Shown: positions 13,414-50,533 of the stretch, one piece after another
Position numbering within the stretch: the stretch's first letter is position 1
Layout of the letters: each line of letters opens with the position of its first letter
Assembly (NCBI RefSeq): GCF_902728285.1
Contig: NW_027104315.1
Location: 354,032 to 405,664 of the forward strand
Direction: 5' to 3'
DNA length: 51,633 nucleotides
DNA from: Clytia hemisphaerica
Lineage: Eukaryota
Notes under the pieces: generated by a model
Seen by the model: the letters and a program-made list of their open reading frames with translations, nothing else
Database searches by the model: none
Told to the model about the DNA's origin: nothing
Made by a program: the position numbers and the translations under genes

Positions 13414-13655
13414 ATGAGTTTCCCAAATTGAAAGGAAAACCTGAAGTAACTGTTGGTAGTCATGGCAACCGAATACGTTTCACTTGTGATTTCGAACCAG
13501 AACAAATTAAGAACAATGCAAAATATAAAGTGTCATGGTACACACGCACATCTGATGGTAATGCAGAATTAGTGAAGACAGAGACGTTACATGGAAATCA
13601 AACAAAATCTTTTTTACAAAACACTGATGGGCAAAAATTCTGCTTACAGAAAAAT
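13414..13655 (+). CDS. Exon, Ig-like domain (…VTVGSHGNRIRFTCDFEPEQIKNNAKYKVSWYTRTSDGNAELV…GQKFCLQKN)
   Basis: Ig-type C…W…C spacing (FTCDF / VSWY / KFCL); acceptor tttttttag|AT, donor AAT|gtaagt; phase-consistent. Confidence 0.6.
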
Positions 13656-19663: not shown

Positions 19664-19801
19664 GTACACACTAAAGATGTTACAACAGCCAATTGCTATT
19701 CCAATGGTGATCCACACATTACAACATTTGATAACAGAAGATTCGACCATTACAGAGTTGGTGATTATGTTTATACCAAATCTGGTGCACGTCTATTTGA
19801 G
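19664..19801 (+). CDS. Exon, start of von Willebrand factor type D domain (VHTKDVTTANCYSNGDPHITTFDNRRFDHYRVGDYVYTKSGARLFE)
   Basis: Canonical VWD opening C.S.GDPH..TFD...F.F.G.C.Y; acceptor ctatag|GT, donor GAG|gtaggc; 46 codons. Confidence 0.8.
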
Positions 19802-20924
19802 GTAGGCTCAGTTATAGAGGAGTTTTTTCAAAGGATTTACCGATAGAATTATAGTAATGTGCTTTGTGTATAAATCAAATTCTTCATTCCAATATTTAGA
19901 GTTTCCTTTGGTATAAGGAAAATAAAGTAACTACAATCAGTGCCATAACATATTGGCAATTTTGGCTATTTACCATTTTTCAAAAATTAAAGTTCGAGCG
20001 AGAATGTCATTTTCGGATCTCCAACTTGGTTTCATCGAATATTTCGATCTGGGAAGGATTTATTAGTTTCTTATATTTCAAGCCCTACCGGACCATTTTT
20101 GAACTTTTGGATCTTCAGATCCTAAGGTCCTAAGTTTCCAAGTTAATTTAGAATGCTTCCAAATTGTTTGTGGTTATAAAATTTCGTGGGGAATTTCCCT
20201 TTTGTGCCAAGTATTTTAGCACTGAATGTAGACCTATAGGCGAACGCAACGGCCTATTGAATGACTGGCAACAGTATAGTTCCTTGCAGACGGATTATTT
20301 TATGATCATTAGAAAATTTGGACTAGTAATCTCATGGTTTGGATTGAAATTCTTACAATTCTGAAAGACGTCAATTTAACACTGGAAATCAATCTGAAAC
20401 TTAAAGAAAAGGTCTCAAAAAAGTCATGGAAACGCAAATCGCGTTTAAATTGGATAGTATTCCATTTACTTAGAGCCTTAGAAGTTAGTAAGAAACTTGA
20501 AAAAGGTGATTAATTTCTAAACGATGGAAACTTCACTTTTGCAGGAAATTACAAAAGCTAGGAGGGAAATTAGAAGTTCACGGCAAAATTACAAATTGAC
20601 GTATAAGCGAAAACGTCATTCGATTTCAGTCAACCATGAGATAAATGCTTAGTAATAGACCTTTTCACATAAGTTACATCACGCAACGCTTACATCGTTT
20701 TCAAAATATTGCTATGGTAATTGAGTCCCAGAGGAGTTCATAAGAAGTTGACTGTATTAATAAAAGTAACATTTGAAGACTCCTGGGACATAATGGGTGT
20801 TAGTTTGGGCATGGATTTATTATAGAGACTCTGAATAAACATCGAATGAAACGGTGGAGAGCCAAGTATTGCCTTTCCATCGTTTTTGCATCTTTCTCGC
20901 AATTTAAAACGTCATAGCGACGTA

Positions 20925-21200
20925 TAATTAGTAAATAGGGAGGTTAAGTATCAAAGATAAACCAACGCGACGAACGGACGGGTTTTGACCCACAACCTGC
21001 ATTAAACATGTGGACCTGCATTTTCTTTAGAATCCAGGCTAAAACAGCTCAAGAACGAAAAACCGTGAAAATCTTCGTTGTTGAACAAAGAAGATGTAAC
21101 ATCTACTTTGCTACCCTTACCGTCATCTTGCAGAGAAAAGGTCCGTTCGTCGCGTAGATTTATCTTTGATACTTAGCCTCCGTAATAACTATATTAGTTC
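20925..21200. mobile_element. ~275-bp MITE with ~50-bp TIRs (…GGAGGTTAAGTATCAAAGATAAA.C.ACGCGACGAACGGAC…) in a VWD intron
   Basis: Inverted repeats seen directly. Confidence 0.7.
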
Positions 21201-21629
21201 AAATCTCGGAGGAGAACTTAAAGTCTCATTTGGGAATTGAATAAGTGTATTTTGATGAGAAATGCAATAAGAATGCTATGAAGGATCATTTTAATGGTGG
21301 AAGGAGGGCTAACAATAATTTCATTACTGCGGACAAGGTTTGAATATGAGAGATTGGCAAAAATCAGCCAGTTGTTAATCCAGTGTCTATAATAATTCTA
21401 TGGTTTGGGGTATTCGTCGGTTTATCAAAAGTTACATTAATCCCGTTACCTCAAGCCGTCAGTGGAAAAACACCCAACCAACGAGCATTTGTATTCTTCC
21501 TTCTTTCCCTATAATTTTCAATAAGGACAAAATGTAACACTTTTTCTAGCGATTTATTTTTCTACAACGGGGTAGGGCAGTTAGGGAGGTAATTAGGAAA
21601 TTTACTATAAAAACGTATTTTCAACGCAG

Positions 21630-21815
21630 GTGCACGTACGAACTTTTGTTTGCGCTTCGGTGTCCTGTAATTGTGGAGTAGCAGCCAGAGAAGGTGATGA
21701 CGTCATGGTGGTGGACATGTGCCGAGACAATGTACCACGTGCTAGGTTCGCGAGTACTGTTGAACCACAACCTGGAACTAGAATTAATCGTAGTCCTGAT
21801 GGAAAAGTTTTTGAG
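21630..21815 (+). CDS. Exon, VWD domain continued (VHVRTFVCASVSCNCGVAAREGDDVMVVDMCRDNVPRARFASTVEPQPGTRINRSPDGKVFEV)
   Basis: Acceptor ttttcaacgcag|GTG, donor GTA-adjacent GAG|gtatga; 62 codons, phase 0. Confidence 0.7.
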
Positions 21816-22396
21816 GTATGAAAAAAATGCTGATAATGTTGATTTTATCAATCCGGTCTCGATAATTTATTTTCCGAGTGACATGCACTTTCGAACTATA
21901 ATCATAAAAGAAATAAAAAGTTTTTCAATATAAAAAAAAAGCCATTTGCCAGAAGCTAATCTCTAACTTACAGTTATCGCTACAATACACTGGTGAAATT
22001 GTCTGAACATTTACATTGCATGTGACTATCTATTTTGCAATAGTTGCTGAAAGTTTTATTAATAACCTATAACCAAGAAGCTGCGTAGAAGAGCGAGCAA
22101 TAGTTGGTGAGAGGGTGTTGGTTAGCATCCCGCCGACAAATTTTCTTTTCAAGGCTTAACCCAATGGGACGTTCATTTTTTTCCCGCGTAATATCTCAAT
22201 AGCGTAGACAAGGGGGGCGCAAAATGTGTGTCGGAAAGCAGATTTTATGACCCAGTAATTATCCTTTTATATTATGAATAGATTATTACAGTGTCATAAA
22301 AATCTGCTCTCCTACACATATTTTGCGTGTCTACGTGTCTTTCAAGTTGGAGTGTCAGTTTACATCGCTGACTACAACCTAATTTTTTTATTTAAG

Positions 22397-22620
22397 TTTT
22401 CTTTCCCGTCTGGTGCATCCGTTCGCTTCGAAGCAAGACGTTGGTTTGGTAACACTTACTACGCAAATATCGTGGTCAAACTTCCCTCAGATGATTATAA
22501 AAATACATCTGGTTTATGTGGTATCTGGGACAGTTCGTCTTCCAATGATTTGACCAGTAAAGAAGGACAGAAATTCCAAGGAGGCGGTCAAGCGCCACTT
22601 GGTTTCACAGAAAGTTGGAA
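22397..22620 (+). CDS. Exon, VWD domain continued (…VKLPSDDYKNTSGLCGIWDSSSSNDLTSKEGQKF…)
   Basis: VWD hallmark 'GLCG..D....ND'; acceptor atttaag, donor AA|gtaaga. Confidence 0.75.
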
Positions 22621-23329
22621 GTAAGATCTATATACATCTTTTCGACCGTAGTCGCGCGGTCAGGCGCGCACCGCTTAATTATTTAGTTATCCCCCTAAAC
22701 TCGATCCAATCCTTTTTGACACATTTACCTATTGTCTATAGGTGCGAAAAAAGGACTGGGACAGTTTTAGTGGGATAAAGCGGACAAAAAAATACCCGCG
22801 TGGCAATTGGTAGCTACGGTAGAAAAGATTTATTATTGGCCAGCATCAGATATAAGCACTTTTTCATTACAACACATTTTATAAGAACTAGGCTGAAATG
22901 TTGGAAAAAATAAAAACATCATAATAATATGGCCATCCTGAAAAGGGGAAGTAAAAATATTCCCAAATTTGCTTAAAATCATATGAATTAATTTAAAAAT
23001 TCATTCTATAATTGCAGTAATTCTTTTACTTCCCATCTTTGAATTATAGCAAATTTATTTTACTGGGGGCAGCCAATTTCTATAAGTCATAAGGATATTA
23101 AGGGAATTAGGGAGTGGTCAAAAAATATCTTCTAGGTCGGGTGAAGGATTTTTTAAAAGTATTTTAGGCTCATTATTGCCAATAACATAAGCACTTTCAG
23201 GCTCAAAACCAATTAAGACGTTCTTATAAAAAAAGTTCCACAATAATAATCGGGGAAAGCAGTTCGCTACGCAAGCGTTAGCTGCAACGACGAAAATTTT
23301 GAGGGGGTGATGAAATTGTCCCCAGACAA

Positions 23330-24575: not shown

Positions 24576-25328
24576 AAACTTGGTCGAGTTAAGGAGAAGA
24601 CATTCGAAATACAAATGACTCTACTGTACTAGATTTCAAAATAATCCTTGAAATAATCATTGGCATATCGCAACGAGACAAAAACTTCTCCCGCAGAAGG
24701 CTTCTGTTCTCCTGTGCAGTGACTTTCAAAACAAAGCACACTTTTTTATATGATCATACCAAATAACTTGCTCCATTTAGTTTTAAACCCGGTTTTAGGG
24801 ATTTGTCGGCATGATTCTAATTTTTATCAGCGATCCAAAAAATATCTGCAATCTGATTAGTTAAAAAGAATACAACATATCTTTTTTTTTACATGTACAA
24901 AATATAAATTGACAAAAAGATGTTCTTACATTTTAGCGGTAGAAGCAATCTAACGTCACTTTGCTACAAAAATGCCCTGCGCTTTTTTCCGACACAAAAA
25001 GTGCATTTTTTCGGTCACCGATAAACCAGTTATCAGACATTTTTTGCTTGTACAATATGGAAATATATTTCTCATATTGTACTCGTAGCTGTCCGATAAC
25101 TATTTCATATCGAAACTTCATGTTCTTTCCAACGGTAACTACAAAGGATCAAAAAGACTTCCGAAACAGAGACTGAGTTAGGAAGTGACCTGACAGAGCC
25201 TTTAGAACTCTAATTATTTAAAACAATCAAACATTTCTATACATTTTATTTTTCAGGAGCTGAACACTGTGGTAAAAGGAGGCGAAGACGTCGGGATGTT
25301 GAAACACAGAAAACCTTAATCTTGCCAG

Positions 25329-25554: not shown

Positions 25555-25652
25555 CCCAGCTGGCGCACAGCGTTGTTTCAATGTTAATCTAACGTTCACA
25601 ACGTCCATTTAACGTTAGATTAACGTTTAAACAACGTTGTGTGCCAGCTGGG
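25555..25652. mobile_element. AACGTT-rich palindromic MITE copy, ~14 bp after exon-15 donor
   Basis: Sequence identity to the other copies. Confidence 0.85.
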
Positions 25653-27170: not shown

Positions 27171-27414
27171 ATCTTGGATGATATAGAAGTTGCAACATCA
27201 TCAGCTGTTGGTGTCATGAAAGATGCATGTGAGGAAGTCACCCTTCGAAATATCACATTATGGAAAACAGATGATACTACTGGTCAACTTCAACCACCAA
27301 AAGCTGTTGCAGAAATCTTATGTCCAAACGAATGTAGTGGTAATGGTTATTGTGCTAATGCAACATGTGTTTGTGATGAAGGATATTTGTCTGCTGATTG
27401 TTCCATCCACGAAG
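27171..27414 (+). CDS. Exon, linker plus EGF-like domain (…[31 protein letters not shown])
   Basis: EGF pattern C.3C..G.C.4C.C..GY.4C; acceptor ctttatag|ATC, donor GAAG|gtgaaa. Confidence 0.7.
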
Positions 27415-28331: not shown

Positions 28332-28468
28332 ATGATCCACCAGTGCTGGTAAAAGTGGCTTTCAACGGATTGTGTGACATTCGTCAAAAGGACTGCGTTC
28401 GAACACGTGTCATTGGTAGAAACTTCATCAATTCTGAAAGTTTAGCTTGTCAAACAAAGGCTCTCAAG
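28332..28468 (+). CDS. Exon (DDPPVLVKVAFNGLCDIRQKDCVRTRVIGRNFINSESLACQTKALK)
   Basis: Acceptor ttttatag|AT, donor AAG|gtatgt; phase 1 in, 0 out. Confidence 0.6.
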
Positions 28469-30355: not shown

Positions 30356-30790
30356 ACTACTTGGTTATCTTATCACACCCCCTTGTCACAGACAGGATTT
30401 CTTCATCCAGTTGGTATAAGAATAACGAAATGAAACTCGATGGGGATTGATTTTCTCATATTGTTTTAGCTGGGGATGTCAATTCTTTTGTTTTCAAGTC
30501 AGAAAATTCAATGAGAATGGGGAAAATATCATAATATTTTGCAGTGAGGATTGGTTTATTTGATTATTTTCTGTGGGGACGAAAGTTGGAGTATTATTTT
30601 CCATCGGGAACGATATTTTGGCCAATTTTTCCAGTGGGAAGGGGTCCCAGTGGGTTTATGAGAAGGAGGTGCCTTATCTTGTTATGATGATTCTTCTTGG
30701 TTGTTATAGTTCACTACTGACCATTCTATCGATGAAGAATTCAACGGAGAAGCAACAATTCAAAGCAGTGAATTATTAAGTTTCGCCGAG

Positions 30791-30982
30791 TTGAGTTGCG
30801 ATCTACCTGATGTTCCAGTCGATATTGTTTTTTCGTCAACGCAAAAAGGAATTCCAGTTGGGGGTTTTGATATCCGATTGTCAAACAATGGGGAAAATTT
30901 CTCGAATGAGAGTTCACAATTTGTGGTGTATGATTCCAAATGTTTACAATGTAATGCCACTACTAAAGATTGTCAGTGGAAG
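30791..30982 (+). CDS. Exon, IPT/TIG-like segment (LSCDLPDVPVDIVFSSTQKGIPVGGFDIRLSNNGENFSNESSQFVVYDSKCLQCNATTKDCQWK)
   Basis: Open frame and donor AAG|gtatga; the acceptor (cgccgag|TTG) is weak and chosen for phase; exons may be missing between 28468 and here. Confidence 0.45.
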
Positions 30983-31639: not shown

Positions 31640-31745
31640 GAAGACTCCTGCCGAGTGAACAATTATTGTTTTGGCAAAGGAGATGCACATCCATTGGATT
31701 GGTGCAAAGTCTGTAGTGGAGAAAATGCTTTTGAACCAAGATATG
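31640..31745 (+). CDS. Exon, PSI-like Cys-rich segment (EDSCRVNNYCFGKGDAHPLDWCKVCSGENAFEPRY)
   Basis: Acceptor gaattttag|GAAG, donor TATG|gtaaga; C..NNC…WC..C spacing resembles plexin/semaphorin PSI. Confidence 0.55.
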
Positions 31746-34242: not shown

Positions 34243-34449
34243 ACAACTTGGCACCTGTGTTTCGACCAACTGAACCTATCAAAGTTTTTAAAGACCAAGA
34301 AATGAGCTTCGTTATCCCCGTATTTGATCCTGAACAGAAGAGGATGAAATATGAGTTGATAGAACCACCATCACCACCACTGGGTATGGAGATCTCCAAT
34401 GGTGGAGTACTGACATGGACACCCAAGGAAGAAAACAAAACGTTCACAG
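34243..34449 (+). CDS. Exon, dystroglycan-type cadherin-like (CADG/He_PIG-like) domain (DNLAPVFRPTEPIKVFKDQEMSFVIPVFDPEQKRMKYELIEPPSPPLGMEISNGGVLTWTPKEENKTFTG)
   Basis: Motifs 'F.IP..FDPE…Y.L…P.G+.I.NG.L.W.P'; acceptor ctatttcag|AC, donor CAG|gtaacc; the phase-1 G from exon 19 completes a GAC codon exactly. Confidence 0.65.
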
Positions 34450-34775: not shown

Positions 34776-34957
34776 TATGGATCAAAGTTACTGACATTTG
34801 TGGCAACAGTTCGTATTCTACATATGATTTTGAGGTTGTTAATTGTCCTTGTCAAGCTTTCAATGGTGCAGAATGCCAAAGAGGTGATAATGGAACTATT
34901 AGCTGTGTTTGCCTGCTGGATGTACCGGAAAAAAGTCGAAAAAAGCTTGCACTATAG
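34776..34957 (+). CDS. Exon: end of cadherin-like domain plus Cys-rich EGF-like segment carrying RGD (VWIKVTDICGNSSYSTYDFEVVNCPCQAFNGAECQRGDNGTISCVCLLD…); stop at 34955-57 if unspliced, or donor at 34922 (GAT|gtaccg)
   Basis: Acceptor tttttttcccag|TA; phase-consistent with exon 20; the 3' boundary is unresolved. Confidence 0.5.
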
Positions 34958-36061
34958 TTTGCTCTTAATAACTCGAAAGTAAAAGTTATGTTTTGCTTAG
35001 TTGAATGGACCTATCAGAGTTTTCTTGATTTTTTCTAAAACAGCGATGCATTGTGGGATTGTTTCAGGAGTATTACAATAAATCTCTTAGAATTCCTCGA
35101 GGAATTCATTATACCCCGGAAACAATCCCACAATGCATTACCGTTAAAGAAAATCAAAATACCCGAACTGATTTCTTTTTTCACTGAAGATTAAGCTTTT
35201 GAGTATGAAAAACTGAAACGTTTTTTAATCAAACTAGTGGAACTGTTAAATTTTTATATTCACGGCACCTGTCTGCAAGGGTAACCCTGCTTACAAAGAC
35301 TTACAGTCAACTCTCTCTAATTCGAACCTCTATTATTCGAATTTTTCTGTAATTCGAACTAAAATTGGTCTCTAAAGCTGTAAAGTGGTTTAAATTACTC
35401 TCTATTATTAGAATCTTTCTCTAATTCGATCAAAGTTTTTGATCCCTTGAAGATCGATTTAGAGAGAATCAACTGTACTTATAAAGTCAAAAATTCTTCA
35501 ACTATTAGCTTTGTGCGAAAAACTTCTCTTTACACACCACCGTGCCACAGATCCGGTGGACCCCCAGCCTCACATGTAAATAATACCCTAGGATTTAAAC
35601 CCCACTGGATAATTAAAGTATGATTTATCCCCATTCGAAATTGGGCGGCAAAAACTACACTCCAAAACCAAAACCACCCCCGTTTTTCTTTTTGAGCTAG
35701 AAACAATGATTTTCTGTCCCCTTTCGGACTTTCATCCCCACAGAGAGAAAAAAATCCTTTAGCAAAAATTGCCTTGACTTTGATTTTTTTTTATTTACTA
35801 AGGTCACCCACTCAACTAAGCTACTTTGAAATAATTAATAAAGAATAAAATATGATCTACAAATTTAAAATACCCGTAAAGAAACGTAATGGACAAGTAA
35901 GTAGCTTGACAAAATGATATGTAATCTTGATATCTCAATCTCTTTACTTTTCCAGTTGTTCCATTGGCGAAGAGTGTAAACAAAAAAGTAAGGAAAAACT
36001 GTCTTTTTGATTTTCTAAAAGTCCATTTTGGCTTAAAGTTTAGTTAAAATAATTTGGTAGT

Positions 36062-36156
36062 CCAGTTGGCAACGACGTTGTTTCAACGTCTATCTAACGT
36101 TATATAGACGTTATGAACATTAGATAAACGTTGAAACAACGTTGTGTGTCAGCTGG
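36062..36156. mobile_element. AACGTT-rich palindromic MITE copy
   Basis: Sequence identity. Confidence 0.8.
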
Positions 36157-36418
36157 TAGGCCACTCTTAGACCATGTTCAGACGTTACGGTTTCGTTTCG
36201 CTCCGGTTTGGTATTTGTTACGGATAGAAAGTGTTCATACTCATTTCGGAACATTTTGGAACAACAAAACGGAGCAGTTCTGTTCCGATGAAAATAGTAG
36301 AGCAAAACTGTTTCTAACTGTTTTGCTTTGTAACGTCTTCTTTTTTGACGTTTTCAATTTTGACGTTCAAGGAACGAATCGTCCATACAGGATTCGAAGC
36401 TAATCAATTCCTATTTAA

Positions 36419-37125
36419 GGGCTCTGACCATAGTCCAAAAATAGATTTTGGTATTTGAACATAAAAGTTATATTTCAGGTTCCTTAACACTTTTAACAAA
36501 GAATTGCCTTTATAAATTGCTTTTTAATCGAATCCCTTAAGAGTAATTAAGAATTTAATTGCAAAAATGACGTTATGAACTTTAAAAAGATGTTAATAAT
36601 ATGTTGCATCACCCTCTTTTACAAAAAGTGCTTAGTTTTAATGGGTAAATAACTTTTTTGTTTCAAAATTTCTTTACACTGTCCGCAAAGAATTGAACTA
36701 TTTCAAATTTTGCGGAAAATTTTTCTAAAAGAGTGTCAAAAGTTATGACTGTTTTTTTAAGCAAAATCCAGATGAAAAATTATGAAAAACCACTAATTTG
36801 AAGATTTCGAGACAAAGAGCATTACCAAAAATTTTCCGCAAAAATTTTTATTGTTCGGTAAAAGATACACCATCTACTGCGAAATTTCTTTCAAAATGTT
36901 TTTTCTTCGCCGAAACTAAGCTCTTCAAAGTTGAAATACTCTTCCTCGTAAAAGTCTTCATTTTCTTCTTCATCAAATTTTCTCAATGCAATTTTTAAAT
37001 TTTTAGATTCAGGAATAGTTTGTCTAACAGAAAATGTATAACATGCCATAGTTTTGTTAGTTACGTCAGTCAGAAAAGACATTTTAAACACGGCAATTAT
37101 GAAAAATTCACTATGGTCAGAGCCC
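36419..37125. mobile_element. 707-bp TTAA-flanked element with 15-bp TIRs GGGCTCTGACCATAG
   Basis: TTAA TSD at 36415-18 and 37126-29; partial 5' copy at 4217-~4350, only ~22 bp after the exon-1 donor. Confidence 0.75.
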
Positions 37126-37205
37126 TTAAGTTGTGCAGATCACCTGTTTCTTATGTTGGTTGGCTTAAATGTAATTTTGACCACCAGAATTCGCCCAAAA
37201 ATACC

Positions 37206-37292
37206 CCCAGCTGACACACAACGTTGTTTCAACGTTTTTCTAACATTCACAACGTCCATATAACGTTAAATGAACGTTGTGTGCCAGCTGGG
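37206..37292. mobile_element. AACGTT-rich palindromic MITE copy
   Basis: Sequence identity. Confidence 0.8.
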
Positions 37293-38772
37293 TAGTGTTA
37301 AATTCAAACTGTCATCCGAAATGTTATCTGGCACCCGATGTAGAAATTTTCTTCCGACACGCTAAAGCTCTGAAGGTCGGGAAAATTTTCAACATCTGGA
37401 AGAAATACATTACGGAATTTCGCCTGACCGCGTAATTTTTTAGAAAAATGGGCCCGAGTGCAATTTGGATAGGGAAGGTGTCATGGCCGACAAAATTTCG
37501 GTCAGAAAAAACTTCCAAAGGTTTCACGAAATAAATTCAAATACAAAACTTTTGGAGAAGGAATCATGCAAAATATTATCATTCTTTTCACAAGGAGGGC
37601 GGAGAATACTCAAATAAGTATTTTCCTTCTTAAACTGATCACAGACAAAAAAAATGAATAACATTGTACACAAAAAAGCCTGAAAGAAGAGAAAAGTCAT
37701 AATCAGCATCTATAATAACACTAAAAGAAAAACTAAAGCTATAGAAAATGAATACTAACCCTCAATGAAGACTTTTGTGAAGTTTAATAAAGATTTTATC
37801 CAAAAAACTTCAGTTCTGGAAAACTGAAGTCGGTTTGTCGGTTTGTCGGTTGTCGGCCGGTGGACAACAGTTATATTTGGAGGACGGTCTAAGATAGATA
37901 ACAACATGAAAGTTACTGATAAAAGCCTAAGCCCATAGGAACATACCTGCTTTAGTTTCTTTGGTCTTTGAATGGTATAAAATTTGAGAAAGTGCAGAAA
38001 AAATCAGCCATCAAAACAAACAAAAACAAAAGTTTGATTATCAACTTTTCTGTGGTAGAAACACATTTTTTGGGTTGGTGCACATACAGAAATTACACTG
38101 GATACTAAAACTAATATTCAGGGAGTGATAAGTACAGTTAAACTACAAAAAAATCCATCAAAAGAAACCAAAAACAACCATAACAGCACACATTTTTTGA
38201 AAATTACATCAGCCATGTTGTTTGTAATTTTTGCCGACATACTCATGACGTGGTAACTAACGACAGTGATTTGACGGTCTTTTTGAGGCGCCAGATCTCA
38301 AAAAAACAATTTTTGAGCGTTCAGCACGGCCCCGAAAATGAGGGCTAAACTTATGTCGGCACATCAATGGATGACTACTATTTCTCTCCGATGGTATATT
38401 GGACCGCTCCTTTAGAGCTTTAGCGTGGGCGGCCGCCAATACGCCATCGGAATATCAGATAATCCGAAATGTGGTGAACATTTTGAAGATTCCTCTCTAG
38501 TCTTCGGCTAGATTATCACATTTGATCTTACCCCCTAAGGACCTAAGGTGTTTAAGCGAATATCGGACAGAGATAGAGGTGCATGAGTTTTTTTATTTAT
38601 CAATGAAAAAATTTCAAAATTTCAAAAAGAGAATCAGTGGATTGGAATTTTCCTTGAAAGGAAAAATGTGAAAAAAGAATTCACACATCCCCTACGGTGT
38701 TTAGGTTCTGCAAATACTGGATGGATAGAAATGCATAAGTTTTAACATTTTCAATATTTCAACTTTCAATAG

Positions 38773-39162
38773 CATCTCCAATGAAACTCAACTGCTATCA
38801 AAACAAAATGGAAATTGGTTTAGAATTCGATCACCTATCACGTCACTCCTTACCTTATATCGTCAAATTTCATGGTGATAATAACTGCCCAACATTAAAT
38901 GCATCTTCAGCATCTTCAATATACGATGGACGTCTATGGATGAATGCAAATTACAGTGAATGTGGTATCAAAGCTTTTGAGAGCGGAAACAAACTAGTGT
39001 TCAAACAAATCGTTGAAGTTGTGTACGGAAAACAAATGAAATCTTTAGATGTTTATCGACATTTTATTGATACTTATAACGCTTCTTGTTCGATTGATAG
39101 AAATGTTACACATAAATTAAACATCGATGTTAAAGAACAGGAGACTCTCGACGATGAAACAG
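38773..39162 (+). CDS. Exon, ZP-N domain (…LNCYQNKMEIGLEFDHL…GDNNCPTLNASSASSIYDGRLWMNANYSECGIKAFESGNKLVFKQIVEVVYGKQMKSLDVYRHFIDTYNASCSID…)
   Basis: Matches uromodulin ZP-N 'ECGANDMKVSLGKCQL…DSRCSGF…W…GPCGT…Y.N.L…I.R…I.F.CSY'; acceptor ttcaatag|CA, donor ACAG|gtaggc; enters in phase 1, so an upstream exon is required. Confidence 0.8.
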
Positions 39163-39174
39163 GTAGGCACTTTA

Positions 39175-39266
39175 CCTGTAGCACACAACGTTGTTTTAAC
39201 GTCCATCTAATGTTTACAACGTCCATATAACGTTAGATGAATACAACAACGTCGGGCGCCATCCGG
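39175..39266. mobile_element. AACGTT-rich MITE copy (degenerate TIRs), 13 bp after the ZP-N exon donor
   Basis: Sequence identity; flanked by a duplicated 'GAAACAGGTAGG(C/T)ACTTTAC' segment. Confidence 0.75.
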
Positions 39267-40034: not shown

Positions 40035-40233
40035 AGGAGAACGCCGATTTCAAATTCAAATTTAGTGCTTTCAAAGACGATAAAACAGCGATCAGTGGTT
40101 TGGTCTTTCTTGGAGATTTAATCCATTTCGAATTGGAGTTACTTTCCAACTCTAAAGTTGTGAAAACGTCTCCTCAAGATTGTTTTGCTACGCGTTTGGA
40201 TGGAACAGGACGCTACGATCTTATTAAAGATAG
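40035..40233 (+). CDS. Exon, ZP-C domain start (EENADFKFKFSAFKDDKTAISGLVFLGDLIHFELELLSNSKVVKTSPQDCFATRLDGTGRYDLIKD)
   Basis: Acceptor attcaacag|AG, donor ATAG|gtaaac; resembles uromodulin 'F.V.MALFQ…L..[22 protein letters not shown]'. Confidence 0.8.
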
Positions 40234-40814: not shown

Positions 40815-40911
40815 CCAGCTGGCACACAACGTTGTTTAAACGTTAATCTAACGTTCACAACGTCCATTTAACGTTAGATTAACGTTAAAACAACGTTGTA
40901 TGCCAGCTGGG
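40815..40911. mobile_element. AACGTT-rich palindromic MITE copy, ~125 bp upstream of the ZP-C exon acceptor
   Basis: Sequence identity. Confidence 0.85.
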
Positions 40912-41035: not shown

Positions 41036-41328
41036 ATGTGTAGGTGATGATGAAACACTCGCGATCACATCGTCCAATCAACAAACACACATGTTCTCGT
41101 GGGAAATGGAAGCTTTCAGATATTTTGGAAATTCTGACGGTATTGTAATCACCTGTCGAGTTTTGGTTTGTCGAAATAATCCTTTTGATCAACTGACAGA
41201 TGAATGTAAGAGATGTGGACAAACTACCGTCAGACGAAAACGAAGAAATGATGAAGATGAAGAGGAGAAAGATGTTTTGAGCGAAACTTCGCTGAAGAGT
41301 GATCCCATTTTCCTTGTTGAAAGACCAG
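41036..41328 (+). CDS. Exon, ZP-C end plus consensus furin cleavage site and external hydrophobic patch (RCVGDDETLAITSSNQQTHMFSWEMEAFRYFGNSDGIVITCRVLVCRNNPFDQLTDECKRCGQTTVRRKRRNDEDEEEKDVLSETSLKSDPIFLVERP)
   Basis: 'IKD|RC' spans the splice exactly as in uromodulin 'IQDRCP'; RRKRR followed by a hydrophobic stretch; acceptor ttttttag|AT, donor CAG|gtatag (an alternative 6 bp later keeps the same phase). Confidence 0.85.
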
Positions 41329-41649
41329 GTATAGGTATGTCGCTCTCTCTCTCATTATTTCTCTTCTTACATGTTGTAAATTGTCGATTTGAGTGATACT
41401 TCATTTCCTGTATTAAGTTTCCACTGACTTTTCTGAGATTTTTCCGCTAAATAATGTTTTCAAGGCAGTTGTTGCACTCATAATGATTTATGAAAAGGCC
41501 CAATGTCATTATTAAATCTGTCATAATTTAAATACGTACTATGTACTTATCGTGCCTTTTACTGATGCATATTTCGTGACTGTTCCCCAGCTCCCGGACT
41601 ATAACTTTAGTCAACTCTGATGTTATTGTTTTATTTATTCTACACAAAG

Positions 41650-41813
41650 GCCTTGCCAAAGTATCTGGCGATGAAGCAGGTCTCGATCACACTGAAAAGA
41701 TGGCAATCATTGTCGTTTGTGGTGTTGTTGCTTTGGTTCTTTGTGTTGCCATCGTCAAAAAGTTTTTCTTCAAACCTCAAAGTGGAATGCCAGAAAAACC
41801 TGTTGTTGGATAA
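41650..41813 (+). CDS. Terminal exon: transmembrane helix plus short cytoplasmic tail (GLAKVSGDEAGLDHTEKMAIIVVCGVVALVLCVAIVKKFFFKPQSGMPEKPVVG*)
   Basis: Acceptor cacaaag|GC completes a GGC codon from the previous exon; 19-aa hydrophobic segment then KK stop-transfer; TAA at 41811-13. The ORF-track frame over this region (MLLFYLF…) is the wrong frame. Confidence 0.8.
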
Positions 41814-42979
41814 AAAACACTTTCTTGCAGCCTACCATCTGATAGATGGTGTATAATTTAATTTTTTGCGTTAATAAGGGATAACCAGATGGCAGATAGT
41901 TTCAGATGTATTGTCGAGAAATGACTATTTGAAACTGTTGTTACATTAGAAAACCTCCTTCTCACAAACTCATTGGGACCCCTTCCCACTGGAAAATTGG
42001 CTAAATTATCATCCCAAGTGGAAAATTATCCTTTAACTTTTGTCCCCACTGAAAAAAAGTCAAATAAACCAATCGCCTCTGCAAAATATTATGCTATTTT
42101 TTCCATCCCCAGTGAATTTTTTGGCTCGAAAACGATGGAATTTAAATCCCCAACAATAACATGAGAATGTCGGATCCTCCGTCGAGTTTAAGTCCGTTTT
42201 TTTTACCCCCACTGGCTAATAAATCCTACCGGTCCTGGAGAAGGTGAAAAGGGGATGTGTTACAATTCTACTGTTTTCTTGCTAAAATTAAAAAAAATTG
42301 TAACTTGAATGTTTTGATTTTGTAAAAGAGTTTGGCAAAAACATTTTATAAAGTTTTGCTCAGGACTGTGGAAGGCAGAAGATCTGAAACCATCTGAGAT
42401 ATCCCTATAATGTTTATGTATGTAAGATTAAGTAATCGAGGTGTCTTTATCTAACTATGTCAAGTTTTGTTTGCTGATCAATAAATCCGAATTTACTCTA
42501 GATTAAACATTCTAGATCTAAGCATTTTTTATATGTGCCTGTAAGATTCTCCGTACCAATTAGAAAATTAGTAATCTCAAAATTTATTTTTAAATGAACT
42601 AAACTAATTTTTGTATTAAACTTTGTGTATTGAACCATAACTTTTAGTCAAGATGATGTATGAGAAAAATTTCCTTTTAAAGTTGAATATTGTTGTTGTT
42701 TCATTTTAAAATCCTTATCCAAATCTTGTTAGACATGATCCAAACAAATCATCGTATTAGAGGAAAATATATCTATCAAACTGTGCAAAATCCTCTAACA
42801 TTTACTTACTATGATCTAAATGACTGCTTTACAAATTTATGTAGTCTTAGAAGGGTTGTCAATGAACATACAGTAATTTTGTTAAATTTAATTTGATTAC
42901 TCTGATAAAATATAGCATCATAGATAACTCAAAAGAATTCGGTATAGTTAATTAGAATTTGTTTTTCGAAAAATTTGGA

Positions 42980-43211
42980 ATGAAGTATATTGTTTTGCTT
43001 GTCTTCGTTCTGATTGGCCAATCACAGGCCAGCTCGTCAATTTCGTTACCAGAAACGAAAACATGGCGTCAATGTTTAGAAGAATTGAAATTGCAAGAAA
43101 GCATCAAAAGTTACGGTATCGAACATTTTTCAAAGATGGCAATGGATATACATTTCTTCAGATTATTGTATTCAAAAGCTAATTACACATTTTTTATACC
43201 AACGGACAAAG
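42980..43211 (+). CDS. FAS1-repeat protein exon 1: signal peptide (MKYIVLLVFVLIGQSQA) plus start of FAS1 domain 1 (…ANYTFFIPTDKG)
   Basis: ATG followed by a hydrophobic signal sequence; FAS1 H1 box 'T.F.PT+.AF'-like; donor AAAG|gtattc. Confidence 0.75.
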
Positions 43212-43502
43212 GTATTCGACGATTTTCTTTTCTCAGTGAATTTGAAACTTGATCTAAACACCGGTCGCTTTATACTTGTTGCAGCAGCAGATGCACCTCC
43301 TATTGTTAGAAATGCAATTATTTTTTATTTAGAATTATTGTGAAAAGTTATAGGCCTTAGAAGGTAACTCGTTGGGGTGAAGAAACAGCGTAAAACAGAC
43401 TTTTTCTATTCCGACAAGACAGTGTACCATTAATACAAGGAATTTCTTTACTCTATTTACTGTAATGTTACTCTTCGAACCTGTCTTTTTTTGCTTTTAA
43501 AG

Positions 43503-43736
43503 GTTTTAACATGAGCGAAACATATCTCACCAATCAAACATATTTCAAAAAGCGTCGATTCATGCAATACCATATTTATCCTGGAATTCACACCGCGCGT
43601 TCAGTCCGCGATGGTCGCGCGATCGTATCATTTGACGGAGATAAAGCGTATGGAAACAGGTTATATGATCGGTACACAAAGAAAATTCGATTTTGGATTC
43701 AAGGATCAGAGGTTTTACAGCACAACTTGAAATTAG
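43503..43736 (+). CDS. FAS1-repeat protein exon 2 (…YHIYPGIHTARSVRDGRAIVSFDGDKAY…)
   Basis: Acceptor ttttaaag|GT, donor TTAG|gtataa; phase 1 in and out. Confidence 0.65.
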
Positions 43737-44143
43737 GTATAATTTGATTAGATAGATAGAGTCAATATTTTATCTCGATAGCCCAGTAATGGAAGACCTT
43801 TATAGCTATTCGATTTTTTTCACGGGTTTCACAGCCACCCGGCTATCTGAGGACTGAACAGAAATTGTTGAAAGGAATTCGAACTGTGAGCCCGTGGTTA
43901 GAGGTGTGAACGCCTCTCAACTCTCCTTAGAATTTATCACTTAGATAGAGCAAAATGCTCATGTTTTCCTTTATTTCTATTTCTACGTTTATCTCTGCTA
44001 TATATATATATCTGAACTTCCAAGCTAGACTTCCTCTCTATGACTTAGGCGAGCTTATACAAGTTAATCAAGGTGGGAAAAAATCGGATTTAATCTCTGT
44101 TAATAACAGCCTAGCACTATACTATACCGTTTTTCTCCTTCAG

Positions 44144-44376
44144 GCAACAGTATAGTGCATATCATCAATCATGCCCTTACTCCGCCCACAAGTGATTTGT
44201 TTCAATACCTCGAATCAACACGTGGACATTCAATTTTCCTGGATATTTTGGACAGATACCAAGTCTATTTCCAGTTCCCTTTTGGAGGAACAATCTTTGC
44301 TCCATACGATGATGCTTTTGCTAACATACCAACGACTTATAAAGATAAAATTTTCAAAAATGGTCTCAACACAAGA
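44144..44376 (+). CDS. FAS1-repeat protein exon 3: H2 box of domain 1 (NSIVHIINHALTPP) plus start of domain 2 (GGTIFAPYDDAFANIP)
   Basis: FAS1 motifs 'NG+IH.ID.VL.P' and 'T+FAP.D.AF'; acceptor ttctccttcag|GC, donor AGA|gtaagt. Confidence 0.8.
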
Positions 44377-47300
44377 GTAAGTACTTTGCGGGTGTTTGCT
44401 GCAGAGAATCAAATTTATATATAAAACAAGAGCCGCAAAGATGCGGATAAATATTTCCTTTACAAATGTTAAAATAATAATCGATGTCCTCAAAAGATTT
44501 CAAAGTGCTTTAAATCTCAGATAACATCGTCCCTAAAAATTTCAAAATTCCATTTATGTAATTGCCAGTATTTACAGGATTATTCATAAGATAACTGTAG
44601 GTTCAAAGCTACGGATCACGAAATATATCCAAGCTGAACCCGACTGAGAACAACAATGCAGTAATCAAATTGGCTGGAACTTTAATTTTCGTTAGGCGGA
44701 CTTTAAATGGATTTTAGTATTATACTAGCGGTCACCCGGCGTCGCACCGCCAAGTAGAGTGTTGTTGAACACATCAAAAGACCTGATTATATAATTATTA
44801 TTTTAAGCGCTGATTTCCAGAAATATTATTTAGCCAAAAAGGGCAAACATTTAAAATGAAAGAATGACAAAAAGGAGAATATTTCACAGTAAGAAAACCA
44901 AAGAAAATTTTATATATTTTTAAAATGAGCTGAAATATTTTGTATTATACTTTCATATATAAAATATTGTAAAAAATGTAAAAATTAACTTTTGGAGTTT
45001 TTTGAAATAATGTACGTGCCAAAAAGTAAAAATCTTTCAAAACAGGGAAACAATTTCATAAATTCCGACAGAATGCAAAAAAAAAAAAATCTCATTTTTA
45101 TATATATATACTGGGAAACATTTCATAATCTGAAAGAATATCGATAGGAAAAAAATTCCCCTAACAGAAGCCATTTTATGATTTCCAAAAGCATGCTACA
45201 AAAAATAGTCACAGCAAAAGCAAAAAATGTCACATACTTGGAAACAATCATAATTTCCAAAAAAATCTCAAAAAATAAAATAAATTGTCATGCCAGGAAA
45301 TCACTTGAGTTTTCTTCATTTTTTAAATGCATGTGGAAGAAAATGTCGTGTTCACAACAAAAGTTTTCCACGTTTTGAATGCACGAGTAAGAAAATCTCC
45401 AAATTTATCACAAAAGTTTCCACGTTTTAAATGTACATACCGTCAACTGCTTTAACTTGGGACGATTGGTCGAAACATGGGACTGTTTGATATCTGGCCT
45501 GTATTTTCACTCACTTGTTAAATCTCTTTGACAACAAATTTGTTTTGATAACTTAACCAAGTTTATCAATCATACTTTCTTTCATAACATTTCACAATAA
45601 CTTGATTGGAGAATTAGAGAACGCCCGCCGCCTAACCGCCTATCGCCCGATGGGATTAACAAATAACAAGTGTGTAACTTGCCGTGCGAGTGACGTCAAA
45701 CGCTCCATCATTTTGTCACTAATTTTTTCATCTTCGATCTAGACACTCGTGTGTATTCCACTACGAATTTTTTTCATATTTTGATATAAAAGCCTACGCA
45801 GTGCAGTGTGAAAGAGAAATTGTGTTTTCTTTTAATACGCCGTTCATTAACTCAAATTAAATGACTTTTGACTTTGGAGGTTCGGTGAAATGGTGGCCAA
45901 ATTGCCGTCCCATGTTTTAGTCAGATAGTCCCAAGTTGGGGAGCAGTTGACGGTAAGAAAATCTCCAAGTTCATGACAAAAGTTTCCACGTTTAAAACGC
46001 ACGTGGCAAAAGATCTCTAACAGTCAGGCACATCCTGGCAAATGAACGGGGTATTTTTCACTTGCGACCATTGGCAAATGAACGGGGTCGAAAACGAAAG
46101 TAACGTAATAGCGCCGAATACCCAGTTTAATTGAACCGGGTTGGAAATATTTTGCTTCATTTCAAGGAACTGCATAGATGAATTTTTTTTTCCATGGGTC
46201 AATTTTGTCTTCGAAGATTGAAGAAACTTTTAATGAAAAAATAAAGTTCCCAGTTTTCTTCCTTTTTTCCCTTTTTCAGTTTGAAGTTCATTTTTATTCA
46301 TTTTCACGCTTTTAGCCTGAGACGTCCTATCTCATTTACACTGGGTGACGAATACCCCATGCAAATGCTCACCCCGTTCATTTGCCAGGATGTGCCTGAC
46401 TGTCTAAATTCACAACTAAAGTTTTCCATGTTTTAAATGCACGCGGTTCCGGATCCGGTTATCAGCTTTAAAATTTGAAATTTATAACCGCAACGAGTTT
46501 TCACTATACTGTCACTAACCAGCAGTTAATTCATTGTTGTAGATAAAAACACCAAGGGAAATTCAATCATTAACCAGTCAATTTTGCTCCATGTTTAAAT
46601 TTTTAGCTAAAATCAGTTCATCAACCATTCCCATTGCATTGTTGCATTGTCGGCATTGCATTCGTTGGGTGCAAACTTTTTTCACATTACAAGTATGTAA
46701 TTTTTCAGGTATAACATGGTCAGATTTATTCACAGTCACTTGCCTTCGTATGATTTATGTAAATATACAATCAAAATTGAAGTTAGTTTGTTGTGAAAGT
46801 TGATAAAATGTCCTGTTTTTCCAAGACCAAGACTGCAAGAGATTGTATCTCTCATTCCAGCTCATTCCAAACCAACAGAATGTAAACGAAACATCAAATC
46901 CAGAAAGGAATACCAAGAAAAGTTCACTATCGACCATTCCTTGTGACAATCGTACAAAAATCATGATCCAATTCAACTCATTAAAGCATAAAAACCAAGC
47001 AAAGAAAAGTAGCGAAAGAGCAAAAGTTGTTGTAGTCTATTTCCTGCCATCTTTGTTTTGGCAGTTAGAAACAAAGCAGTATGGTCCGATCAACAATACG
47101 CATCTGAAACGGCAGATATTTACAGATATTTATCACAGACGTTTCTTGAAAACATGACGTCTTCCGCCTCGAAAAAAGAACATCCTACTGTTTTTACCGC
47201 CGGAGCTTGATTTAAAAAGAGACTCATGTACAAACTCACGAAATTGACCAAAACCGGCGTTAGACTTGAAGGAGAAGAAGGAGAAAAATTACCGTTTTAA

Positions 47301-47814
47301 CAAATATTTCCTATATAGATAGGAAATATTTAAAAAGTAGTATAGCAAAAATATCGACTCTAATATATTCGAGAAAGTTGTAAACTTTTGATCAAAACTT
47401 TTTATCTAATCAGTATTTGATTGATACAAGGTTGTTACGTGATAAAAACTCGAAAAGGTGATTATAGTTGAATCAATAATCAAAATAGTTTGCTTTCTTA
47501 TCGATCGTGAATAGCTGTCTTAACAATTTCGAAAATGGAGATTTGACCATCACTTCATCACTTTTGGCTGAACTTTGTGTTATATTTACTTTTGATGACG
47601 CTGAGTCCAGTGAAGTAGACTAGGAGCATTTGACTTATTTTCAAATGAAAACATTCTTCATTCTTTTATTACCTGGCAAAACAACGAAAATCTGGCGGGA
47701 TATTTTACAGTCCGCCTAAGCAAAAACATATCACCATATACTACCGAGCCACTTAGTCACGCCATCTAGTCTATAAAAAAGCTTTAAGTGAACCATGGGC
47801 TGGCTCATCCTGAG

Positions 47815-48040
47815 ATACAGCCTTAAGGGGTTAAGAACCATAGGTAGAGCATTCGAATACGGTGTGCAAGCAGACGGGTCATACCAAAGATTTCAAACTG
47901 GTAATTAATGCCTCTCTTAATGTTCAACAATGGAGAGAATAATCAAGGGTAAGTGGAGCGACTAAGGACATTTACCTTTCGAAAGATAGCTATAGAAAAA
48001 GGAGCCTTTGTCTACCTCTGATTGCGATCCCAGACTTATT
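47815..48040 (+). mobile_element. SINE copy ending ~50 bp upstream of FAS1 exon-4 acceptor
   Basis: Core and tail align with the other copies. Confidence 0.65.
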
Positions 48041-48090
48041 TACTTAATACCGTAGTGCGTTATGTATTTAAAATGATTTTTTCCTTTCAG

Positions 48091-48316
48091 ACCTTCCTTC
48101 GCGACCATATTATTCGTCACCCAATGTGTCGTGGACGACTTTACCATAAAAGCGGTTGGTCACGTGTTTATAATGATAATGGTCAAACGTTGGAACTTTA
48201 CCGAGATAAAAAATCAAAAGATTATTCGTTTGTTGAGAGCGCGGGTGTTATGTCTGTGAAGCAAGTTAGAGAAGGATGGGTGTATGCTGTTAGTGAGGTT
48301 TTACTACCTAATATCG
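48091..48316 (+). CDS. FAS1-repeat protein exon 4 (TFLRDHIIRHPMCRGRLYHKSGW…EGWVYAVSEVLLPNI)
   Basis: Acceptor ttttttcctttcag|ACC, donor ATCG|gtaaga; end-of-FAS1 motif 'V.+V..VLLP'. Confidence 0.7.
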
Positions 48317-49091
48317 GTAAGAATAATTGCAAATAGCACAAATAAAACATATCGAGCACAATCAAGTTTCCCACTTGTATTTGATTTGATTTTGGGAGTA
48401 GGCTTTGTAACATATTTAAACTTTTAACTTGGCTCAACTTTATAACTTTTATGGTAATCTCATAAAAACATGCATTCTGCGTTTTATTTCCCATCTGCAT
48501 CCTGTATTTGATTCAATTTTAAGTTTGAGGAATTTCAGCCCTAAAGGAGCTGGAAGACAGACTTTGTAACCAATTTAAACTTTTAACTTGGCTCACGAAC
48601 TTTGTAATTTTTGTGGTAATCTGCATTTACCATTTACCGTTCTGCGCATGTCACGCTTCGCTGTAGCGTAGACAGAGGTGAAGGCGAGAAGATTTAAGCG
48701 ACACAGTGATTATCTTTTTATACCACGAATAGATAAAGCTTTGTCATAAATATCTGCTCTCCTACGCAGATTGTTCTTCACCTCTGTCTAACTGAAAAAT
48801 GGCACTCAGGGTATCCACACTAGTAGCGTAGACAGGGGTGAAGGAACATTTGCTTAGGCATGGAAGAAGATTTAACGACACAGTAATTATGTTTTATGCC
48901 ACGAATAGGTAAGTGCTTTTTCGTAAAAATCTGCTCTCCTACGCAGATCTTTTTTCACCCCTGACTCTAAAGGGATGTGGCGAAATTTGATTACTTTTAG
49001 AGAGAATACATACCAGTAATCAGTGGTGTGGTTTACTTTTACGGCTATCATATGCCACCCGTTCTTTAAATTTGCTTTCTTATTTTCATAG

Positions 49092-49411
49092 ATTCTAAAC
49101 TAATGGACATACTTAAAGATCTCAAAGCAACCAAATTTATTCAATATGTTCAAACGGCCGGATATCTACCATTATTGAACAGTCTGGTAGAAGTTTATAC
49201 TGTTTTCGCCCCTAACAACAAAGCGTTTGATGACCTTGACAACGCTACCAAAACGAGACTAAAAGAAGATCCCGGATACCTGAAATTACTTGTTGAATAT
49301 CATTTGGTCAGAGGACGATATTCTACTGAGACAATGACCAAAAGGTTATTTTACAGAACTGTGGCAAAAAACGGAACGATTAACTATCGCCTTTTTGCAA
49401 GTAGAGCTATG
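49092..49411 (+). CDS. FAS1-repeat protein exon 5: FAS1 domain 3 (…YTVFAPNNKAFDDLDNATKTRLKEDPGYLKLLVEYHLVRGRY…)
   Basis: Acceptor tattttcatag|AT, donor ATG|gtaagc; strong FAS1 H1/YH motifs. Confidence 0.8.
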
Positions 49412-49699
49412 GTAAGCAACAAATATTCAGTTACAAGTCAGGAATTTTTAACCTCTCCTAAGCAAAAAAGGCGAAGCCTTAAACGTATTGCACTGCTTTC
49501 TCTGAATGATGGATTAAATCTAGCATCTTTCTTTGCTTTTGTATTACATTTTCAAATCTTCTTGCGGTAAATATTACTTCCAATCAAGCGTCTGTATAAA
49601 ATCTACACACGGGCTGGAACTTATGTAGGGGATAACATTCCTCGACTGTTGTCTTTGAAGAAATCATCGATATGCCGGGGGTTTGTCGTCTATTTTATA

Positions 49700-49862
49700 T
49701 TCGATTCATGATATTCATGACGTAATATTTTTTCCGGAAAGACCCCGGTTTTTACCAGTAGTGGCAAATTTTATACAACTTTTGTCTAGTTTAAATTTAC
49801 CACCACTGGCTAAAACCGGGGTATTTCCGTAGAAAACATTACGTCATGAATATCATGAATTG
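49700..49862. mobile_element. 163-bp hairpin MITE (TIR ATTCATGATATTCATGACGTAAT.TTTT.CGGAAAGACCCCGGTTTT) ending 37 bp before FAS1 exon-6 acceptor
   Basis: Near-perfect palindrome; half-copy at 28128-28215. Confidence 0.75.
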
Positions 49863-49900
49863 CATTCTCATGATTAATTAGAATGTTCTCATTTTACTAG

Positions 49901-50533
49901 GGAAGCATTCAAAAATCACGGATAATTAATAACAATCAAATGGCTTTAAACGGCATTTGTCACCTCATCAACAAAGTTCTCATACCCCCTGAAATAACAA
50001 CCTATGACGTCATCAATGATATTCGAAGTTTGAGACTGATATCAAAGATGTATGACAAATTCAGTGAAGAGTTTAGACAAGTTTTGGAAAATGAAGATAA
50101 AGCCTATACATTGTTCTTACCGACAAATCAAGCTGTGAAAGCCTTTTTCTACCAACAGAACCCGGTCAATGAAACCGATGCTATTCAAAAGTTGGAAATT
50201 CTAATCCGGAATCAACATTATGTCACTCAACCTTTGATTATATTAGAAGACGACAATCAGCCAGCTATTCCAATAAAATCGGGTAATTTCCCGATTTTAG
50301 GGTCCAGTTCCGATCGGGAAACACGGATTTTGACATTGAGGAAACGAGAAAAACTAGAGGGATACTTGACACCGTATTTCATTGAGGAATTCAAGTCCTC
50401 ATTGGTTCAATTAAATCACGTGACCAGAAATGGAGTAATCCAATTGGTTGATTCAGTGTTCGATGGGAAATCGAAAGTACAAGTTACAAAAGAGATGTGG
50501 AAATCTTTACAAAAACGTTGGAAAGATAATTGA
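49901..50533 (+). CDS. FAS1-repeat protein exon 6 (terminal): H2 box (NGICHLINKVLIPP) plus FAS1 domain 4 (YTLFLPTNQAVKAF…NGVIQLVDSVF), stop TGA at 50531-33
   Basis: Acceptor cattttactag|GG lies just 3' of an in-frame stop; long open frame; AATAAA ~260 bp downstream (~50791). Confidence 0.75.
   Translation, partial: GSIQKSRIINNNQMALNGICHLINKVLIPPEITTYDVINDIRSLRLISKMYDKFSEEFRQVLENEDKAYTLFLPTNQAVKAFFYQQNPVNETDAIQKLEILIRNQHYVTQPLIILEDDNQPAIPIKSGNFPILGSSSDRETRILTLRKREKLEGYLTPYFIEEFKSSLVQLNHVTRNGVIQLVDSVFDGKSKVQVTKEMWKSLQKRWKDN

Follow-up and report, generated by a model that had tools for sequence, protein, structure and literature searches.

Uromodulin (UMOD) and GP2 are attached to the membrane by a glycosylphosphatidylinositol (GPI) anchor, and UMOD is cut by hepsin at the site RFRS. 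The C-terminal half of the zona pellucida (ZP) module, ZP-C, has type I cysteine connectivity in ZP3, and alpha-tectorin pairs VWD repeats with a C-terminal ZP module. The canonical arrangement of ZP precursors, in which a furin-type cleavage site is followed by an external hydrophobic patch and a transmembrane (TM) helix, is set out in PMC8391237. Here we describe positions 41036-41813 (+) of a 51,633-nucleotide stretch of Clytia hemisphaerica DNA (contig NW_027104315.1; the window), which is 35.5% G+C and carries spliced genes. In this interval lie the two final coding exons of a ZP module of uromodulin type (41036-41328/41334 and 41650-41813), and it very probably represents the end of ZP-C and the C-terminal propeptide of a type II module, encoded by the last exons of a large mosaic matrix gene. 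Previously described cnidarian ZP proteins include G8HTB6 of the Acropora skeletal matrix (PMC3748352), a possible member of the sequence cluster of the present module, and the Clytia TM ZP glycoprotein ZpdA (PMC4169000), which may be the product of the present gene.

The C-terminal cassette of the ZP module

An initial annotation of the window had proposed a complete ZP polymerisation and cleavage cassette in this interval, and all the elements that it named are present on the + strand, the interval starting at an exon start and ending at the last base of the stop codon (Table 1). Read in frame from 41036, the sequence gives RCVGDDETLAITSS...ITCRVLVCRNNPFDQLTDECKRCGQTTVRRKRRNDEDEEEKDVLSETSLKSDPIFLVERPG up to a donor at 41328 (CAG/gtatag) or 41334 (TAG/gtatgt), and after the intron 41650-41813 reads LAKVSGDEAGLDHTEKMAIIVVCGVVALVLCVAIVKKFFFKPQSGMPEKPVVG followed by the stop. 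The ZP-C exon had been described as ending with the furin site. The polybasic sequence RRKRR is indeed there, five residues past the last ZP-C cysteine (C8), but the exon continues through an acidic stretch, as proposed, and the hydrophobic patch to one of the two donors. The TM helix and its KK stop-transfer were likewise recovered, in a separate final exon. The helix has a Kyte-Doolittle 19-mer mean of 3.28 and scores -4.4 kcal/mol on a simple-sum Hessa scale; when all six frames of the window are translated, 2 of 33,829 19-mers without a stop reach a hydropathy of at least 3.0, and the TM helix is one of these. The cleavage motif R-x-[KR]-R has a background of 0.52 per 1000 residues in the same translation, and the rarity of the two features together places the cassette far beyond chance.

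Spliced, exons A-D (Table 1) encode a ZP module of 349 residues. The Pfam ZP-C family PF00100 matched the 347-residue module with 48.3 bits (cut-off 24.6; E = 1.4e-12). PF00100 was not listed in the Pfam scan of a 644-residue frame-repaired C-terminal protein that embeds the same module, an omission that probably arises from HMMER filtering. Among proteins of solved structure, uromodulin and GP2 are nearest in sequence, and the six cysteines of the type II ZP-C pattern (C5, C6, C7, Ca, Cb and C8) all align with those in UMOD residues 505-585. A profile built from 31 family members matched UMOD, ZPD and GP2 across both ZP-N and ZP-C with E values of ~1e-29 to 1e-31, ZP3 with 1e-23 and betaglycan with 1e-11. 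A search for further ZP copies within the window returned none.

The cassette is strongly conserved. An exhaustive homologue search gave 164 relatives, and our counts use the 95 that were retrieved with at least 60 residues past the last ZP-C cysteine: 89 of these carry R-x-[KR]-R no more than 40 residues past C8, a TM helix is present in 83, and 81 combine the two. When 31 sequences were aligned (mean identity 27%), the only invariant columns were five ZP-C cysteines (C179, C197, C236, C241 and C253) and R266, the predicted P1 arginine. C256, R263 and the patch proline P286 are each at least 90% conserved, P286 in the coral sequences too, and the ZP-N cysteines C7, C38, C63 and C105 are conserved columns. 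The hydrozoan homologues P0002-P0006, at 37-44% identity, all retain R-[RK]-[KR]-R, S-x-P-I-[FY]-[IL], the TM helix and KK. Among the closest homologues V276, S284, I287 and KK do not vary, the motif V..E.S.KS.PIF is conserved, and F135, F137 and F139 of the candidate internal patch strand FKFKFSAF are invariant. From the cleavage site to the TM helix there are 46 residues; the corresponding distance in mouse and human ZP1-4 is 34-75 residues, mostly 38-49 (computed from Table 2 of PMC8391237).

AlphaFold models of the module are compatible with this anatomy. The ZP-N part of the whole-module model (mean predicted local distance difference test score, pLDDT, 66) reached 75-86, and a model of ZP-C only had a pLDDT of 70 and a predicted template modelling score (pTM) of 0.66. 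In both models the cleavage loop falls below pLDDT 50 and is predicted to be disordered. After the site, strands are predicted at 276-283 (VLSETSLK) and 287-290 (IFLV), and in the ZP-C-only model this block has a pLDDT of 86, among the most confident portions of the domain; a helix at 310-335 covers the TM segment. The best Foldseek matches were precursor-form structures, namely the UMOD polymerisation region (4WRN), full-length ZP3 (3NK3/3NK4) and ZP2 ZP-C (5BUP), and the ZP-C-only model gave TM-scores of 0.54-0.68 against ZP2 ZP-C, betaglycan ZP-C and 4WRN. In the initial annotation the patch was PIFLVERP. This peptide is present and includes the predicted strand IFLV, but according to the models the patch is probably longer (VLSETSLK plus IFLV). 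The UMOD patch, which we take to be VLNLGPITRK, would match SLKSDPIFLV and the preceding strand here, and shares with it a G/D-P-I core; on this basis PIFLVERP would be only the C-terminal half of the patch.

The proposal of a canonical ZP furin/patch/TM arrangement is therefore upheld by the Pfam ZP-C match, the cysteine alignment with UMOD and GP2, about 90 homologues, the AlphaFold models and the 46-residue spacing. The cassette itself is ordinary and strongly conserved, and there is nothing conceptually new in it; its interest is that the furin-site, hydrophobic-patch and TM logic of ZP precursors is fully present and strongly constrained in a hydrozoan.

Upstream exons and a single-base frame break

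The spliced module is 99% identical to the EukProt protein TCONS_00059241, whose cluster also holds the RefSeq protein XP_066930018.1 of Clytia hemisphaerica. Both models start inside exon A (338 aa from MEIGLEF in XP_066930018.1; 345 aa from MKLNC in TCONS_00059241), and neither has a signal peptide. In a 74%-identical relative the Met of MKLNC is replaced by Leu, indicating that this Met is not a conserved start. Another cluster member, P0168, is encoded by two transcripts, contig L001 of a JGI metatranscriptome and contig L002 of Logan; for P0001, P0003 and P0166 no encoding contigs are on record. The 5' 88 nt of L001 and L002 are open in the ZP frame, read GTISCVCPAGCTGKNCSIGEECKQKMVSPMKLNC, and map to 34891-34934 and 35957-35987 of the window, upstream of exon A. 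A third contig, L003, was recovered by pattern scan; it is 96-99% identical to the window and has a single open frame running from window position 28356 to the stop at 41813 in ten exons, with canonical splice sites at every matched window exon. Since L001, L002 and L003 splice the ZP exons to upstream exons, the ZP module closes a large mosaic matrix gene at its 3' end and is not a stand-alone unit, and the public models XP_066930018.1 and TCONS_00059241 are truncated fragments of this much larger gene. The two in-frame donors of exon C, 6 nt apart, are both used: 41328 in L003 (ERPGVAKV), and the equivalent of 41334 in TCONS and RefSeq (ERPGIGLAKV) and in L001 (ERPNKGVAKV).

The window itself differs from these transcripts by a 1-nt deletion in the EGF exon, with CC at 34912-34913 where L001, L002 and L003 all have CCC. 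Over 34910-34917 the transcripts read TGCCCTGCT and the window TGCCTGCT, and the encoded protein changes from ISCVCPAGCTGKNC to ISCVCLLDVPEK. The upstream frame of the window then continues as ...ISCVCLLDVPEK/IVPLAKSVNKK/HLQ to a TGA at 38782-38784, three codons into exon A, and the ZP frame is closed by a TAG at 34900-34902. The deletion shuts the frame upstream of exon A, which explains why automatic annotation places the start at the first Met in that exon. That both independent transcripts have CCC, that both models derived from the laboratory strain are truncated and start in exon A, as expected with an in-frame TAG ahead, and that a second truncated paralogue model (XP_066930002.1) sits on the same scaffold would all fit a genuine deletion, in other words a real null allele or young pseudogene whose protein ends in the ZP-N exon and whose cassette has not yet decayed. 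An erroneous base followed by automatic annotation would give truncated models equally well, however, and a single-base indel in a short run of C is typical of an assembly or haplotype artefact. Moreover, over 1.9 kb of coding sequence nothing else in the window breaks the frame relative to L003, and all splice sites are canonical. With the base restored, comparison of the window with L003 gives a ratio of non-synonymous to synonymous substitution (dN/dS) of 0.13 (dS 0.09), the upstream part (0.11) and the ZP part (0.15) having equally low values. No relaxation of constraint is seen, which argues against old decay. We therefore regard a genuine null allele as rather unlikely, though deserving of attention; an assembly or haplotype artefact is more likely than an old pseudogenisation, and a very recent null allele is the alternative to it. 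The single base at 34912-34913 decides whether the large gene is intact.

The shape of the RefSeq and TCONS models might also suggest a small independent gene of ~380 aa, composed of signal peptide, ZP module and TM helix, whose signal-peptide exon, a short way upstream, would have escaped recognition. Lengths of 380-400 aa are common in the family, and the full-length proteins P0005 (425 aa) and P0006 (397 aa) start with a signal peptide that immediately precedes the ZP module. A search of 34955-38772 did give a candidate first exon of fitting phase at 36575-36644 (MNFKKMLIICCITLFYKKCLVLM, donor G/GTAAAT). We rejected it, since the background for such exons is 0.25/kb, or about one expected per 3.8 kb, and the transcripts show another upstream structure; a tblastn search of the window with the N-termini of full-length homologues found no match beyond exon A. 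In all three contigs an open frame runs from the EGF exon through the micro-exon into exon A, and the MKLNC start is not retained in the relative mentioned above, which makes a self-contained gene very improbable. A different objection concerns function. The module could belong to a membrane-anchored, non-polymerising receptor or co-receptor of the endoglin or betaglycan type, its polybasic motif being a shedding site or a juxtamembrane charge cluster. The fold matches do include ZP-C of betaglycan and of endoglin, and no polymer has been observed. Against this, the family is by sequence much nearer to the filament formers UMOD, ZPD, GP2 and ZP3, which reach E values of 1e-31 to 1e-23, whereas betaglycan reaches 1e-11. 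In addition, the P1 arginine never varies and the patch proline hardly does, and the F-x-F-x-F strand is conserved at the position of the internal patch. A receptor is thus improbable, if less so than a self-contained gene, and we favour the propeptide of a polymerising ZP module at the end of a large gene.

How far this gene extends was examined on the same strand. Exons at ~4028-5200, 13400-13650, 19664-22621 and 27300-27400 (+) encode C-type lectin (52 bits), Ig_VWDE (67 bits), VWD and EGF domains, and these exons, a VWDE-like mosaic, probably form the 5' part of the same gene. A D8C_UMOD domain (PF23283; 46.2 bits, E = 5e-12) is encoded by two spliced exons, 7283-7396 and 10299-10508 (+). 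Transcript linkage of the ZP exons reaches back only to 28356, and the D8C and VWD exons lie further upstream; for these we infer a shared transcript, and the large gene is probably the one that carries the C-type lectin, D8C and VWD domains. An upstream exon past the VWD region contains a second polybasic motif, GKRRRRRRD (25274-25294, +), a possible extra convertase site. That a single very large cnidarian matrix protein combines C-type lectin, D8C, Ig_VWDE, VWD, EGF, Ig-like and uromodulin-type ZP domains is a serious possibility, which we put forward tentatively and not as the expected outcome. If it is true, the D8C-EGF-ZP combination of uromodulin and GP2 and the VWD-ZP combination of the tectorins predate the cnidarian-bilaterian split, the locus offers a non-bilaterian model for ZP filament assembly, and the reference annotation hides this protein, one base splitting its gene. 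Within the literature collection searched, no paper connects D8C with Cnidaria.

Processing of the precursor and surroundings of the gene

By homology with known ZP proteins, the precursor would be directed into the secretory pathway by a signal peptide encoded far upstream, in the 5'-most part of the gene, and the TM helix with its KK stop-transfer would hold it in the membrane as a type I protein. The strand or strands VLSETSLKSDPIFLV may act as the external hydrophobic patch that fills out the ZP-C beta-sandwich, so that polymerisation would be blocked. A furin-type proprotein convertase is predicted to cut after R266 (RRKRR/N), in an exposed, disordered loop five residues past the last ZP-C cysteine; the patch would then stay with the membrane stub, and the freed ectodomain could assemble into ZP filaments.

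Several points weigh against this proposal. Cleavage, secretion and filament formation are transferred by homology from vertebrate ZP1-4 and UMOD, and none of them has been observed for the close homologues either. The overall confidence of the models is moderate (mean pLDDT 66-70), and the packing of the patch strands on ZP-C is suggested by DSSP and pLDDT only. With the window sequence as given, no continuous translation leads from the upstream exons into the ZP exons. A signal peptide for the large gene was sought upstream of the C-type lectin exon (1-4100), where nothing convincing was found, and within the window none occurs in the same open reading frame as the ZP exons. The initial annotation had argued for a functional gene rather than a pseudogene, and part of that argument stands: the four ZP exons are intact, canonically spliced, transcribed in close relatives and under purifying selection (dN/dS 0.15). 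Against the argument, the module lacks its own signal peptide, and in the window its upstream link is broken at 34912-34913. Frame disruption in homologous transcripts had been named there among the observations that would refute the proposal; a disruption was found, but in the genome, the transcripts being open. The practical value of the analysis lies in annotation, namely a corrected gene structure and a single-base frame break.

Table 1. Features of the ZP module and of the exons joined to it (window coordinates)
Feature	Position	Strand	Evidence or remark
Upstream exons in L003, followed by the four ZP exons	~28356-28468, 30710-30982, 31640-31745, 34243-34449, 34776-34934, 35956-35987	+	
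EGF-like exon upstream of the ZP module	34776..34934	+	L001 and L003 align, 96% identity, one gap; carries the 1-nt deletion
Micro-exon, 32 nt, CSIGEECKQK, linking the EGF and ZP-N exons	35956..35987	+	L001 and L003, 94% identity; acceptor ccag, donor gtaagg
Exon A, ZP-N domain, C1-C4	38773..39162	+	Spliced translation; 99% identity to TCONS_00059241; family profile aligns to ZP-N of UMOD and ZP3
Exon B, interdomain linker, candidate internal hydrophobic patch strand and ZP-C start including C5	40035..40233	+	Spliced translation; homologue alignment
Candidate internal hydrophobic patch strand FKFKFSAF	40049-40072	+	Predicted strand 136-143
Exon C, remainder of ZP-C (C6, C7, Ca, Cb, C8), furin-type site, acidic linker and predicted external hydrophobic patch	41036..41334 (alternative in-frame donor 41328)	+	Acceptor ttttttag
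Last ZP-C cysteine, C8	41214-41216	+	
Polybasic site RRKRR	41232..41246	+	Consensus R263-K-R-R266; predicted cut after R266, before N267
Acidic linker NDEDEEEKDVLSETSLKSD	41247..41303	+	9 D/E in 19 residues
Strands equivalent to the external hydrophobic patch, VLSETSLK-SDP-IFLV	41274..41318	+	AlphaFold strands 276-283 and 287-290
PIFLVERP	41304-41327	+	
Last intron	41335..41649	+	GT...AG; 315 nt, or 321 nt with donor 41328; transcript alignments
Exon D, coding part: juxtamembrane spacer, TM helix, cytoplasmic tail and stop	41650..41813	+	
TM helix MAIIVVCGVVALVLCVAIV, 19 residues	41700..41756	+	Hydropathy; AlphaFold helix 310-335
KK stop-transfer and 16 more cytoplasmic residues, KKFFFKPQSGMPEKPVVG	41757..41810 (KK, 41757-41762)	+	
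Stop TAA	41811-41813	+	
3' untranslated region, at least 871 nt	41814..42684	+	L001 contiguous over 41644-42684, 94% identity

The paralogue XP_066930002.1 (262 aa, same 90%-identity cluster) is encoded outside the window on the same 459,709-bp RefSeq scaffold; it has the same RRKRR, patch and TM cassette, and its model is also N-terminally truncated. Less than 300 bp past the end of the ZP 3' untranslated region seen in L001 (42684) begins another gene, 42980-50530 (+); its product starts with a clear signal peptide (MKYIVLLVFVLIGQSQA, ATG at 42980) and contains three or more fasciclin (FAS1) domains. The window also contains a palindromic family of ~85 bp resembling miniature inverted-repeat transposable elements, with termini CCAGCTGGCACACAACGTTGT and internal AACGTT repeats. 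Its termini gave 13 matches (0.05 expected), and the copies, at 40815-40910, 39176-39250, 10520-10610, 25560-25650, 36130-36150, 37210-37290 and elsewhere, are all intronic or intergenic. A dispersed repeat occupies ~41950-42230, in the ZP 3' untranslated region, and recurs at 30394-30671 (-) and 6861-7109 (+), the copies being 76-79% identical.

Comparison with known ZP proteins

UMOD and GP2 (4WRN, 6TQK, 8XC5) are the best solved relatives of the Clytia module by sequence and by fold. They share with it the six-cysteine ZP-C pattern and a cleavage site 4-5 residues past the last cysteine, and their D8C domain (PF23283, 46 bits) also occurs upstream here on the same strand, the transcripts linking the ZP exons only back to 28356. 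The Clytia protein differs from both in having a TM helix with an 18-residue cytoplasmic tail and a polybasic furin-type site; identity in the fold alignments is only ~16-18%, and it has C-type lectin, Ig_VWDE and VWD domains upstream, unlike UMOD. It is not a UMOD orthologue. The propeptide logic of vertebrate ZP1-ZP4 is identical, with a consensus furin site, an external hydrophobic patch (in Clytia a predicted one), a TM helix and a short tail (PMC8391237). The spacing from site to TM helix is similar too, and precursor-form structures of this group (ZP3, 3NK3/3NK4; ZP2 ZP-C, 5BUP) are top fold matches, but these proteins differ in their N-terminal extensions and egg-coat biology, and identity is ~16-20%.

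The closest kin are the cnidarian proteins composed of signal peptide, ZP module and TM helix (hydrozoan P0002-P0006 and coral P0156-P0160), which have the same module, an RKRR or RRRR site, the patch and the TM helix, the hydrozoan members at 37-50% identity to the Clytia module. The hydrozoan and coral relatives that we examined are mostly short and stand-alone, with a signal peptide of their own, whereas the Clytia module is fused to a much larger gene through EGF and Ig-like exons. We know of no ZP module or TM helix in vertebrate VWDE. The Ig_VWDE (67 bits), VWD and EGF domains of the upstream exons recall the mosaics of the VWDE, alpha-tectorin and zonadhesin type, and should the D8C and VWD exons code for one protein with the ZP module, the locus would bear on the origin of both uromodulin-type and tectorin-type architectures.

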